Notes: generated from the sequence alone by a model not told the origin. Shown: positions 3,464-62,287, counted from the whole stretch's first letter. The stretch: 62,926 nt of DNA, filler included, from Reclinomonas americana ATCC 50394 (GCA_048213135.1; 18 parts of 18 records of this genome joined end to end with filler, not necessarily neighbours in it), one strand, 5' to 3'. Numbers and translations: made by a program.

Positions 3464-5241
3464 ATGTCCGCAGGCGTTCTTTCGCCTTCTTCCGAAGTGT
3501 GCAAGCGCGTCCGTCATCACCACTCGCACGACGTGGCGGAACCGGACGACAGCTGTGAGGTCGAAGAAATTCGGGACGATGAGCAGGTGAAAACCAAGGC
3601 GAAGAGGAAGAAGAAGCGACGCACGCCCGGCGTGTCAATAAGTTGAGTGTTGCTGTTGTGGTTGTTGTTGTTGTCACACTCTCTGTGACACACAACGGAG
3701 GCTCACTCTTTCACTGTGAAGGTGTGGACGACGCAGCGAGCATCCTCCGACGCGCGGGTGTGCTCCCAGCGCGATCAAGTGGCACCGACACACCATGGGC
3801 GCCACGCGACAACGCCCTGCGAGCAGGCGTTTCGCTGCAGCAGGCCAAGGCCATGCTCATGGGCGTGCAGGACATGCCAGTGTCGGCCGTCACCTCACCT
3901 CCTCCCGTGCTCTCGCCCAACCGCTTTGGCGCGACGCCATCGCCGGCGGATCGCTCGTACAATCCACCGGCGGGCGAGGCACCGACAGAGGAGGACCGGC
4001 AGCGATGGAAGCGACGAGTGCGCGTCGAGGGCGATGAGCATGTGTACCCGCACGTGCGGGTGTTGCACTCGCCGACAGTGGAGGCGCTGCCGGGCGATCT
4101 TTTGTCGCCCTCGGAGTCGTGGTCGGTGACGGCTGCGGGACTGGCGATGGGCGGCAGTGTACAGGAGGGCGCGGCGACTGCGGCGGTCGTGCATGCGGTG
4201 GCGGAGAAGCGCGGAGGCGACTTGTCTCCGCTGGCGCAGGAGGAGCGGCAGATTGCCGAGGACCGAGGGGCGCAGTTGCGCACGAAAAAGGCGATTGCGT
4301 ACCTGCGGCGGCTGCAGTTTGGCGAGGCCAACCCGCGTGAGGACGAGCGGCGATCGTCGCTCGTGTCGTTTGTGCGCGATGCGGAAGACAGGTTTGCTTG
4401 CCTCTCCTCTCACTTTCTCTCTTCCCTTTCACCCCGCGTGCTCACCCACCCCACTCGCAGAACGGTGCTGAATCCACGCGCCCTCGTACCACCCTTCCTG
4501 CCGAGCATGTACGCGACGCCGGGCCGGTTAATGACGCCGACCATTTGCAACACTGCGCGGCGGCACATGCAGATGCAGATGGAGCAGCAGCGACGTGCGG
4601 CCAATGCGCGCACACTGCCGGCCATTCTCCAACAGCGGCCCTCCGACAATAGCAACGGTGGCGGTGGTGGCGGCAGAAGCGCCATGACCAGTCCCACCTC
4701 CATGTCGCGCCTGGGACCACTGGCCGCGCTGGCGGCCTCATCGGCGCTGGCCGCCACCTCGGCCATGATGCCCGACACGGCGGCCGGTGCCGAGCTGGCC
4801 AGGTTAGCGCAGAGCCTGCAGGCGCGCCAGATGCAGGTGGAGATGCACCTGCGCATGGCGCAGGAGGCGCAGCGGGAGATGGCGCTGATCAAGGCGCCGC
4901 CACCGATTCCCGTCGACCTCAACGCCCTCGCCAAGAGGTTACAGACGAGCATTCAGACGCGCTCGCGCATCGACGAGATCCGGCAGGCGACGCGCGATAT
5001 GGTGGCGCTGCAGCATCAGGATGTCACACCGACGCCGGCCGCCATTCTGCGTGCCCTCAACCACGACATGGTGGGCGGGGGTGGCATGCAGTCGCGCGGC
5101 GGTGGTGGTGGCGGAAGTGGCGGAATGCCCGGCTCGTTCTTGCCCTCCGCCTCGGGCATGATCAAGGCCGCCAAGCGCGCTGGCAACCGCCCGCCGCACG
5201 CACCACGGACGGCTGGTACTGCGGGTTACCGGCAATGTTGA
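3464..5241 (+). CDS. Hypothetical low-complexity protein (Ala/Pro/Gln-rich, basic KRKKKRR stretch); 3 exons
   Basis: ATG 3464; intron 3642-3721 (GTTGAG...AAG, phase 1) joins into the long GC-rich ORF; probable in-frame intron 4392-4460; TGA at 5239-5241. No family recognised. Confidence 0.7.
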
Positions 5242-5740
5242 TGGACGTAAAGATAGATTGATAAAGAATGAGGAGGAGAGAGGGAGAGAGATAGGTAGAT
5301 AACTTGTACGTGTATGGCGCAAGTGACTGGTAATAACACATCATGTAAACGACCACCTTTTAAAAAAGGGAAGGGAGAGGGAAAGGAGAAGGGGGAAGGG
5401 GGAAGGGGGAAGGGGGAAGGGGGAAGGGGAAAGGACAAGTACAATTTTCTGACTCTCGGTGTGAGATAATATAAGAGGCACAGCAGCAAGAACTGGGAGG
5501 CCGAGGGGAGGAAAGGTCTAGCTCAGCTGTTCAGTGCACCCTCTGCAAGCAGACTGCTGTTGTCTACGTACAACAGGTAACGTGCTGCACATGCTGGAAC
5601 AGAAAACGAAGATATACACCACTATACTGCCACTGGAGAGTGTCTGGCAGCAGTGCGACGTGCAGCATTGTGGCGTATATATGACGAAAACTGAACAAGA
5701 GCAGACACACCGAGTATAGAGAAGGATTGCCCACTCTGAG

Positions 5741-59600: not shown

Positions 59601-62287
59601 TTTCGTCTCCCCTATCCTCTGCGTTCTTGCACGCATTTTCTGTGCTTGTGTAACCATCACCCTGTCGCACCACGACTTCTTCTCTTTTTATGTGTGTATC
59701 TGTGTCGGTAGCATTGTCGCCGTTACAGCACGCTTCCGTCTCCTCCGTTCACAACCTTCCTGTGTGCTTGTAACCTCCTCACTGCTCACTCCACAAAGTC
59801 CGTCGTTTCACTTGTCACTGACATGTCTCCTCGTCTCTTCTCTCTTCATCTGTACATATGTGCGTCAGTGGCGTCATTGTCTCAGCTCCACAATTATTCT
59901 GCACGCATATCCTGGTCCACTGAGTCTGTCTATTCATTAATCACTGACATGTCTCTTCCGCTCTTCTCCCTCTGTGCAGGTCTATGATGCCACGCGATGC
60001 ACAAGGACGCTACTGGCACTGCTCAATGGTGACTTCACCCTTCATTCTTCTTCTTCCCTCATACCTTCATATTCACAAGTCAATCTGACGCAGACCTGCT
60101 CGACTCGATGAAGGAGCGCCGCCTGCCTACGACACTCAACTGCACGCCCGAGAACCTGCCCGAGCTGCTGGACGCCGCCACCATCAACGCGCGATACATG
60201 ATCAAAGCGTTGCGTCACCCTCTCCTTGCCAACAGACGGCACAATGCTCACACCTCTCCACCCCGCGACAGCTCCAAGAAGGCGGACCTGCAACTGATGA
60301 TCAAGCTGAGCGAGTGGTTGGCGCAGGCAAAGGACGAGACGCACGAGGTGTGGCTGGATAGGTTGCGAATCACGCAGTGCGTGTCCAACCTGCTCTCCAA
60401 TGCTGTCAAGGTGCGCTGTTTGTGAGGGCACGCAGACAGACTGTCGCCACCCGCTCACTCATACTCTGCTGCAGTTCACAACCTCTGGCTCCGTCACCGT
60501 ACTCTGCGAGGTGGCAGAACGTCTGCCCTGCGAGCCACACGATCTCCCCGAGCACATCCATGGAGGTGAGTGTTTCCTTCCTCCTTTGTGCGTCGTCACA
60601 GTGTCACTCACCGCCACCTGCGCCAGCACCCAAGCATCGGTACATGCCGGTGGCGTCACCCGTTCAGGCACTGGTGGTTTCGGCATCGTCGGCGACGGCC
60701 GCGCTGCTGGAATGCAAGAGGCACTACTTTCTGCAAATCTGCGTGGCCGACACGGGGCCTGGACTGCCGGCCGCTGATGCGAGGCGGCTCATGGAGCCGT
60801 TCTTCCAGAGTGCGGCGGTGGTCAACAGTACCGGGTTTAGGGGGAGTGGGATTGGTCTCGGTGAGTGGTGGGGGAGGAAGGGGGGAGAAGGGGGAATAGG
60901 GGAAGAGGGGGAAGGGGGAAGCAGGAGAAGGGAGGGATAAGGGAGGGGGAGCGCAGGAGAGAAGAGGAGAGGAGAGGAGAGGGGAGGAGAGGGAGGAGAA
61001 GAGACTTGGAAGAAAGATGAAAAGAAAAGCGAGGAGTTGGAAGGAGGAAGATGGGAAGCGAGCAGAAAAAGGAGATGCGAAGAGAATAAAACAGCAGAGG
61101 AGACACGGGAGAACAAGCGAAGATAAGCAAGGAGATGATATCAGATGAGCAGAGAAGAGCAGAGAAGAGCAGAGAAGCAGAGCAGAGCAGAGCAGAGCAG
61201 AGCAGAGCAGAGCAGAGCAGAGCAGAGCAGAGACGCGAAAACAAGAGAAGAGAATGAAAAATTCAGCAGAAAAGTGAAGTGAAGTGAAGTGAAGTGAAGA
61301 GAAGAGAATAGAAGAGAAGAGAAGAGAAGAGAAGAGAAAGAGAAAGAGAAAGAGAGAAGAGAGGAGGAGGAGGANNNNNNNNNNNNNNNNNNNNNNNNNN
61401 NNNNNNNNNNNNNNNNNNTTAATTAATTAANNNNNNNNNNNNNNNNNNNNNNNNNNNNNNNNNNNNNNNNNNNNCTCCCTGCTCTCCCTCTCTCTCACTC
61501 CCTGCTCTCCCTCTCTCTCTCTCTTTCTCTCTCAATTTCCACCAACACTCTCTGCCTCGCAGGTTCGAGTCCACACCCGGTACTGGCTCACGCTTCTACA
61601 TCTCGGTGCCGTACGTGCCAGTGAAGAGGTCTCTCGTGCCCCTCGCTGCCACCGCCCCGCATTCAAACGACTCACTTTCCCATCCAACAGATCACCACCC
61701 GTCGAAGAGTCGACGAGATCCACCCCCACATCAGTGCAACTACTCCGCTGCGTGCTGATCGACGACAGTCGCATCGTCACCAAGTCCCTGGAGCGATTCT
61801 GCCTGTCGCACGCGGTGAGCAAGCACGATGAGCAATCCAATCGAGATGACATCACTCCTTCCCTCACCTCACCTCGCCGCAGTCTCCACCCGTCAGTGTC
61901 GCTGGCGTCTTCCACGACGGCAAGCCGTTTGTGGAGTGGCTCGACGGCCAACTGCGTGACTCGCCCGACCTGCTGCCGCACGTGGTGTTCATCGACAAGA
62001 ACATGTGCGAGTTGCACGGCGACGAGACCATTGACCGCATGGAGAGCATGTTGGCCTCGAGGGGTCTGCCGCACACGCTGACAGTGGTGACGATGACTGG
62101 CGACGACACGGATGTGTTCAAGAAGCGATGCGACGGCAATCGTCTGCGTTTTGTTCGCTTGCGGAAGCCAATGACCAAGGTGCAGGTGCATGGTGTGCTG
62201 AGGGAGGCGGCGGGGGTGGTGCAGGAGGGGGAGAAGGAGGAGGGGAAGGAGGGGAAGGGCGAGACGATGGGAGAAAATGTACAGTGA
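56609..62287 (+). CDS. Membrane-bound hybrid sensor histidine kinase (TM region-HisKA-HATPase-receiver); true start lies upstream and is unresolved; one exon is probably lost in the 61.4-kb gap
   Basis: H box FLSRCSHELRQP; N box RITQCVSNLLSNAVKFT; G1 VADTGPGL; F EPFFQ; G2 GSGIGL; G3 ESTPGTGSRF; receiver VLIDD...VVFIDKNM...TMTG...LRKP; several hydrophobic exons at 56.7-58.4 kb. Confidence 0.92.
57220..57350 (-). mobile_element. Dispersed element, module A copy in a histidine kinase intron (antisense to host)
   Basis: Reverse complement CAACAACAACACCAACTTTACTAATCCAAACAGCAACACAGCTGCATGATGATCACCATCTTGAGTGAGCACCAGAAACTCAGACATCACGG matches 2833-2945. Confidence 0.75.
58960..59760. repeat. Degenerate tandem repeat (~200-260 bp) in a histidine kinase intron
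   Basis: TGT(C/T)GGTGGCGT.ATCGCTGTCACAGCACGTTTCCGTCTCATC.ATCCTCTGCGTTCTTG at ~59228 and 59438, with degenerate copies at ~58967 and 59701. Confidence 0.8.

Follow-up and report, generated by a model that had tools for sequence, protein, structure and literature searches.

The stretch of Reclinomonas americana ATCC 50394 DNA analysed here (GCA_048213135.1; 62,926 bases, hereafter the window) carries many predicted introns that begin with GTTGCGT, and this heptamer very probably marks a genuine class of 5' splice sites. The class makes up between 17% of the introns (18 of the 104 predicted) and 50% (8 of the 16 junctions rankable by homology), depending on the set that is counted. We propose that it would constitute a second mainstream 5' splice-site class of GT-AG introns with a U2-type branch site. 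In our view the best explanation, to which we give a probability of roughly 0.45, is that the class is genuine and has a dedicated reader, the likeliest candidate being a U1-type small nuclear RNA (snRNA) with an altered 5' end.

An earlier interpretation, made from the sequence alone (the sequence-only reading), had listed 19 such donors, 16 of them beginning with GTTGCG and 3 with GTTGAG or GTTGTG, and had proposed that they are real and frequent. Both parts of that proposal held in the homology tests and gene predictions described below. All 19 motifs were found in place (a donor on the minus strand being denoted here by its first intron base), and our recount agreed with the reported T at position +7 in 16/19 and exonic G at position -1 in 2/19.

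Junctions ranked by homology

Three genes provided junctions that could be scored against homologues: a UBA2 (SUMO E1) gene (approximately 42.4-46.8 kb, plus strand), identified by Pfam and PDB searches; an MFSD1-like transporter gene (51.4-48.1 kb, minus strand), matched to PDB chain 8r8q_A; and an MTAP-type phosphorylase gene (40.2-38.4 kb, 38370-40171, minus strand), with PDB matches that include 1v4n_A. We enumerated all frame-keeping pairs of a GT or GC donor with an AG acceptor, translated each product, and scored it against profiles built from 66 full-length homologues for UBA2, 44 full-length homologues for MFSD1, and 53 open reading frames (ORFs) from metagenome loci for MTAP. No donor motif was used in the scoring. 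A GTTGCG donor came out on top at all eight testable sites, and GTTGCG accounted for half of the 16 rankable junctions. The other eight top-ranked donors were GTGAGT (three times), GTTCTC, GTGAGG, GTTTGT, GTGTGT and GTGAGC, and two further junctions, the donor near 48828 and the last UBA2 intron, were ambiguous.

In UBA2, the intron of 71 nucleotides (nt) at 43280..43350 was first of 349 candidates (147.5 vs 142.0 bits), and the 62-nt intron at 45204..45265 was first of 216 (37.3 vs 37.0 bits) and was also called by the gene finder that had no site model. The MFSD1-like gene contributed five sites on the minus strand. Two of these, a 58-nt intron at 50744..50801 and a 57-nt intron at 50667..50723, flank a micro-exon of approximately 22 nt (50724-50743) on its upstream and downstream sides, respectively; the micro-exon carries a conserved GGES-type motif, and the donor at 50723 is the sole phase-1 GT near its junction. 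As a pair they ranked first of 8182 structures with 0, 1 or 2 introns (90.2 vs 85.0 bits). The remaining three are a 64-nt intron at 48587..48650 (first of 91; 85.7 vs 77.9 bits), a 63-nt intron at 48387..48449 (first of 16; 132.7 vs 126.4 bits), and a 69-nt intron at 48127..48195 (first of 23; 97.6 vs 89.8 bits), where the homologue alignments end at the exon end. The eighth site is the 68-nt intron of the MTAP-type gene at 39145..39212 (minus strand; first of 121, 226.1 vs 221.0 bits).

The same rankings address the position of the cut, which the sequence-only reading had placed at an ordinary GT-AG junction. That placement is favoured: an in-frame GC donor 3 nt downstream scored 5-8 bits lower at seven of the eight sites, and 0.3 bit lower at 45204. 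The GC alternative was the runner-up at 43280, 45204, 48650, 48449 and 48195. At 39212 it was third (220.9 bits), behind a GC donor 3 nt upstream (221.0 bits), and for the 50801/50723 pair two GC alternatives were third and fourth (83.4 and 83.2 bits). Comparison with known structures gave a similar picture. A gapless match to residues 146-156 of 8r8q_A requires the removal of both small introns at the GT (with a weak E-value of 0.19), residues 329-333 of the same chain are continuous across the 48449 junction, and residues 99 and 100 of 1v4n_A adjoin at 39212.

Gene finding without homology

We also called introns throughout the window with a gene finder that combined a three-periodic Markov coding score with dynamic programming over all GT...AG pairs on both strands, overlaps being settled by score. 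Run without donor or acceptor models, it called 52 introns, spread over 19 genes, and GTTGCG was the joint commonest donor (4/52, against 43 of 6824 GT hexamers in the background; P = 3e-4). We then allowed the finder to train itself, using a hexamer table able to hold any number of donor classes. The self-trained finder predicted 21 genes and 104 introns, among which GTTGCG was the commonest donor hexamer (18/104, a count in which the motif has had a hand through training); the 18 comprise all 16 listed sites and two new ones, at 18549 (minus strand) and 58773 (plus strand). When the trained coding and acceptor models were kept and the donor model was removed, GTTGCG was again first (8/92). 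The counts of 4/52 and 8/92 and the homology tests are thus the results that are independent of training on the motif. A scan of exon ends also placed GTTGCG first (7/42 vs 237/6184 overall, P = 0.001), in a test that has little power because GTGCGT (5/71) was not enriched and GTGAGT fell outside the top 25. A finder based only on codon usage was too noisy, calling introns on both strands, and was rejected.

Occurrence of the motif in the window

The hexamer GTTGCG occurs 43 times in the window (25 on the plus strand and 18 on the minus strand). The copies are divided among 18 donors, 8 sense-exonic, 5 sense-intronic, 8 antisense and 4 intergenic positions. The full heptamer GTTGCGT occurs 22 times, compared with 5.93 ± 2.38 in 100 dinucleotide-preserving shuffles, not one of which reached 22. 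Twenty of the 22 run in the same direction as the predicted gene that contains them, and one is antisense (P = 2e-5). T at +7 is present in none of the eight sense-exonic GTTGCG copies, as against 15 of the 18 donors (P = 1e-4).

Three copies of GTTGCGT, at 19813 (minus strand), 33464 (plus strand) and 45568 (plus strand), are on the sense strand within long predicted introns, and going by the gene models they may be donors of exons that the models missed. Two donors are tandemly duplicated as GTTGCGTTGCGT, at 35379-35390 and 56811-56822 (plus strand), such that the motif recurs at an offset of 5 nt. In the gene models the frame is kept only with the first copy.

Features that set the class apart from ordinary donors

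We divided the predicted introns by donor into class B, GTTGNG (n = 21), and class A, GT[AG]NG (n = 29), the latter representing ordinary donors. The sequence-only reading had noted a lack of exonic G at -1 and had called for a statistical test, and the contrast proved strong: 2/21 in class B vs 23/29 in class A (P = 1.6e-6). It was maintained among phase 0 introns (1/10 vs 12/15, P = 0.001) and among introns of 100 nt or less (2/18 vs 8/9, P = 1.7e-4), and in the homology-ranked set it was 2/8 vs 7/8, a small sample. The class-B exon ends have A9 C7 T3 G2 at -1, with A enriched relative to composition (P = 0.03), and C8 G5 A4 T4 at -2.

Within the intron, class-B positions +1 to +7 are nearly invariant, with C at +5 in 18/21 and T at +7 in 17/21. 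The sequence-only reading described the motif as the normal donor with one additional T. Were it simply that, the variable position of class B (+5) should resemble that of class A (+4), and it does not: the former is C18 T2 A1 and the latter is A15 C7 G5 T2 (P = 3e-5). In its stated form, that description of the class is not supported.

The two classes also differ in the introns that they serve. Class-B introns are 55-80 nt long in 18/21 cases, whereas class-A introns range from 40 to 1530 nt with a median of 216 nt (P = 8e-4); divided at 100 nt, there are 18 short and 3 long introns in class B and 9 short and 20 long in class A. A branch-like motif, CT[ACGT]A[CT], is found in the last 45 nt of 19/21 class-B introns, in every case 11-28 nt from the 3' end, and of 19/29 class-A introns, in 17 cases at that distance. 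The forms are CTCAC, CTGAC, CTCAT, CTTAC and CTGAT, with CTAAT seen once, in class A. The class-B distances fall inside the 10-40 nt looked for in a yUnAy-type branch site. All 21 class-B introns start with GT and finish with AG. The base after the AG is G6 C6 A5 T4, and a cut one base later (G|TT...AGG) would be possible for only 6/21, because that reading needs G after AG.

Pairing with U1 and a proposed reader

We folded each site from -4 to +9 against the human U1 5' end, following Tan et al. (2016, PMC4856993), in any register and with bulges allowed. The median duplex energy was -1.9 kcal/mol for class B, -2.2 kcal/mol for 1232 background GT sites, and -8.1 kcal/mol for class A. All 29 class-A sites paired best in the canonical register, whereas in class B a register shifted by +1 was the best, and the commonest, in 10/21. 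Replacing the consensus C at +5 by A would strengthen the class-B helix from -1.4 to -5.8 kcal/mol, yet the C is kept.

That seven nearly invariant bases have almost no affinity for canonical U1 suggests a separate reader. We propose the following arrangement. The class would have an extended donor, (C)A|GUUGCGU, that is cut ahead of the first G and that serves almost only minimal introns of 55-80 nt. Its seven intron bases would be recognised together, as one invariable block, by something other than the canonical U1 5' end in the normal register. The likeliest partner would be a U1-type snRNA whose 5' end is altered (ACGCAACUG is the consensus in reverse complement), and the U5 and U6 steps would then set the cut at the GU, as usual. 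A U1 5' end complementary to CAGUUGCGU would account for the A at -1, the C at -2, the C at +5 and the T at +7. A variant U1 or U6 had been one of the two alternatives offered by the sequence-only reading, and it now looks like the better half of that inference.

Applied to the lineage, this proposal becomes one of two readers in a single major spliceosome, with ordinary U1 recognising G|GUGAGU-type introns of any length and a U1 paralogue, its 5' end complementary to CAGUUGCGU, recognising minimal introns of approximately 60 nt. We offer this fuller version more tentatively, as a possibility that falls short of even odds. If true, it would amount to a two-code splicing system operating within single genes.

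A number of points weigh against a dedicated reader, and we collect them here. All of our results derive from the window sequence and its homologues, and the junctions are therefore predicted. We sampled a single 63-kb window, in which class B numbers 21 introns and class A 29; the 104 predicted introns, 54 of which have other donors, are surely wrong in part, and the 18/104 obtained with the self-trained finder depends in part on the motif, since self-training can reinforce an early bias. Neither pseudouridine nor proteins enter into the duplex energies, for which the U1 5' end is taken to be that of human. The A at -1 and the C at -2 are equally compatible with a shifted normal U1 and with a variant U1. 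Whereas our analyses show the donors, their frequency, their rigidity, and their contrasts in exon context and length, the identity of the reader is something that we infer. We are aware of no organism that has a mainstream intron class handled by a U1 whose 5' end has changed, nor of any mainstream intron class that depends on the variant U1 snRNAs of human, which are described below.

Alternative explanations

The alternative that survives best is that one canonical U1 reads both classes, pairing with GTTGCGT in a register shifted by +1 or bulged at +3, with proteins and a short distance to the branch site offsetting the weak helix. We consider it unlikely, though it deserves the most serious attention of the explanations considered in this section. 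The +1 shift is the commonest predicted register, as noted above; the A at -1 (9/21) and the C at -2 (8/21) fit U1 positions 10 and 11; G is not preferred at -1; the restriction to 55-80 nt suits recognition across the intron; and the mechanism itself has been proven in human cells, as reported in PMC4856993. The helices, however, are no stronger than at random GT sites, and the C at +5 (18/21) lies opposite a U1 pseudouridine with which A would pair. For these two reasons a one-base shift on ordinary U1 explains the class poorly. A weak, register-flexible contact also leaves seven near-invariant bases unexplained, and the bulged register would still favour G at -1. The shifted or bulged pairing invoked by the sequence-only reading agrees with the exon end, where A at -1, C at -2 and the lack of G fit a +1 shift, and agrees poorly with the energies, which are at background, and with the C at +5. 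Between a plain register shift and a dedicated variant reader, we find the latter somewhat likelier.

A quite different possibility is that class-B introns are degenerate copies of an introner-like mobile element, such that their uniform length and ends were inherited and no special factor is involved. The narrow length range and the fixed 5' end are what such an origin would leave. The interiors, in contrast, are unrelated, with no similarity beyond the splice signals: pairs of class-B introns share 0.39 interior 6-mers on average, compared with 0.47 between class-B and other short introns and 0.40 among the others. Because this is no excess, class-B introns do not form a young repeat family. 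Terminal repeats were not seen in the intron ends inspected, and if the interiors had decayed fully, seven unselected bases would have decayed with them. We regard this origin as improbable.

Slightly more improbable still is that the class belongs to a minor (U12-type) spliceosome that has diverged strongly. Introns of that type have the 5' end [AG]TATCCTT and the branch sequence TCCTTAAC; the class shares with them a rigid 7-nt 5' end without an exonic consensus, but GTTGCGT and the branch-like CTCAC and CTGAC match neither of those sequences. The same branch-like forms are found in the normal introns of the window, and an Rfam search of the window returned no match to a minor snRNA. A large expansion of minor introns is reported for one amoebozoan, Physarum (PMC10639083).

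Finally, an artefact of gene modelling, in which introns were placed to fit the motif while other nearby donors are used, is very improbable: it can draw on the 8/16 listed GTTGCG sites, the three GTTG[AT]G sites and the two new sites that were placed on coding potential only, and on the intron at 60209, which the frame does not demand, but it is countered by the first rank of the motif at 8/8 donor-blind sites, its strand bias of 20 vs 1, and its enrichment over shuffled sequence.

Relation to known systems and significance

We found no description of a GTTGCGT or GUUGCGU donor class in the literature searched, which lay mostly outside subscription journals, and a paper on this genome could contain one. 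The closest counterparts in pairing are the human +1-shifted sites (Roca and Krainer, as cited in PMC4856993). In these, as here, an additional base after the GU moves the G and U from +5/+6 to +6/+7, the first GU is still cut, and the A and C that usually occupy -2 and -3 are found at -1 and -2. Class B differs from them in its fixed C at +5, which cannot pair with canonical U1, and in helices that are at background. In the bulge +2/+3 register described by Tan et al. (2016), the additional U could likewise be looped out, restoring GU-GCGU, but that register keeps the pair between G at -1 and C9, for which class B shows no preference (2/21). Scale is a further difference: the validated non-canonical U1 registers together account for approximately 1.5% of human 5' splice sites by the figure given there, whereas the class described here makes up 17-50% of introns.

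A genome that combines two donor grammars has its nearest precedent in Ostreococcus lucimarinus, where the rigid grammar likewise goes with a strong ACTSAC-type branch motif: rigid GTGCGTG donors and GACTGACG branch sites are reported outside chromosome 2 and ordinary GTRNGT donors on chromosome 2; separate snRNAs were raised as a possibility in that account (Irimia and Roy 2008, PMC2483917). The motif in the window is the Ostreococcus donor with one inserted T. The Ostreococcus donor, as described there, is in the canonical register (G at +5, T at +6) and the division is by genome region, whereas here the division is by intron length, single genes contain both classes, and there is a one-base offset in register.

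U12-type introns as described by Larue and Roy (2023, PMC10639083) are also alike in being a second class with a long rigid 5' end, no exonic consensus and an snRNA of their own. They differ from class B in both their 5' and branch motifs, the branch motif here being one that is common to the normal introns. A route to a second specificity is illustrated by the human variant U1 snRNAs, additional genes of which some are reported to be transcribed, processed and present in small nuclear ribonucleoproteins (PMC3561869, PMC10870369).

The 5' splice-site code is thought to vary mainly in the strictness of a single U1-complementary consensus. A genome in which between a fifth and a half of the introns carry a rigid motif would offer a natural experiment on what sets the cut site apart from U1 pairing, on whether U1 specificity can duplicate and diverge, and on what defines a minimal intron. 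In practice, gene finders trained with a single donor model would misannotate many genes of this lineage.

Donors placed by coding potential

The remaining eight GTTGCG sites and the three GTTG[AT]G sites from the original list are in poorly conserved genes, with coding potential as their sole basis. On the minus strand, an unconserved gene has a 62-nt intron at 21176..21237 and a 61-nt intron at 21022..21082, both predicted by the coding-potential model; the self-trained finder added a third to this gene, the new 58-nt intron at 18492..18549, which has an ACTCAC branch-like motif. The other predicted GTTGCG introns are on the plus strand. The same finder supplied a 63-nt intron at 31646..31708 in the C-terminal part of a PARP16-like gene, where the PDB alignment of PARP16 ended before the junction. 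Coding potential placed a 55-nt intron at 35379..35433, which has the first of the tandem donors, and a 58-nt intron at 36252..36309, and the 74-nt intron at 56811..56884, with the second tandem donor, was called both by the finder without a site model and by the donor-blind rerun. Two introns fall in a histidine-kinase-like gene: the new 156-nt intron at 58773..58928, called by the self-trained finder only, and a 63-nt intron at 60209..60271, called by the self-trained and donor-blind finders, which is in frame and free of stop codons, such that the frame does not need its removal. The donor at 25973 (GTTGCGG; 825 nt, 25973..26797, with an uncertain acceptor) is atypical in its G at +7 and its length, and it was called by the self-trained finder only.

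The self-trained finder was likewise the one source of the 80-nt intron at 3642..3721 (GTTGAGT, plus strand) and of the 60-nt intron at 27990..28049 in the PARP16-like gene (GTTGTGT, plus strand). It did not recover the GTTGAGT donor that the earlier list gave for 28205..28458 (plus strand), preferring GTGTCA at 28193, which lies 12 nt upstream and shares the acceptor and phase; either of the two may be the donor used. Another recurrent donor, GTTTGT, was found in 5/104 introns, at 43857 (homology-ranked), 48828, 4368, 20531 and 60418. Despite its T at +3 it belongs to the canonical register, because it keeps G at +5, T at +6 and usually G at -1.

Composition and gene content of the window

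The window consists of 18 blocks of 1.4-7.3 kb and 17 identical linkers, each made up of 44 N, TTAATTAATTAA and a further 44 N; the first is at 7285-7384 and there are 16 more. The linkers resemble gaps in a scaffold into which a linker with stops in all frames was put. The PARP16-like gene crosses a linker on the same strand, which makes the blocks look as though they were pieces of one scaffold set in order. Many block ends are runs of (GA)n or (CT)n. The G+C content is approximately 54% overall and 70-96% at the third codon positions of confirmed exons. At Rfam gathering thresholds no family was found in the window, and hence no snRNA gene.

Genes were named by Pfam searches with 220 ORFs and by PDB searches. 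The PARP16-like gene (27807-30089 and 31535-31957, plus strand) matches ARTD15_N and the PARP catalytic domain, and its C-terminal exons are past the linker in the next block. The histidine-kinase-like gene (58300-60940, plus strand) has a HATPase_c Pfam match below the cut-off, along with motifs resembling the H-box and the N/G-box in its translations. A G-beta-like WD40 gene was also named from the Pfam and PDB searches. The best full-length matches of UBA2 are approximately 40% identical and are spread over scattered lineages. An exhaustive search of representative proteins yielded 174 MFSD1-like proteins, PDB searches with two MFSD1 ORFs gave no match, and homology searches with one poorly conserved UBA2 exon and one MFSD1 exon likewise gave none. 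At 36300-37450 (plus strand) there is an open frame of 403 codons with cysteine-rich repeated protein segments. Five GTGCAG donors were predicted, including 36468 and 37106 in this cysteine-rich gene and 16964 elsewhere, and they may be artefacts of the repeats.

The MTAP-type gene scored higher against chain 4glf (named RsfP; 106 bits) than against human MTAP (approximately 70 bits). Its metagenome relatives comprise 69 loci, 68 of them 45-61% identical and one a 38-residue fragment at 76%; because the identity of the 68 is only 45-61%, there is no close relative for a comparison of intron positions. The nearest of these relatives (45-61% identity) sit on long contigs of up to 817 kb. These matches could hint that this intron-bearing gene came from bacteria.

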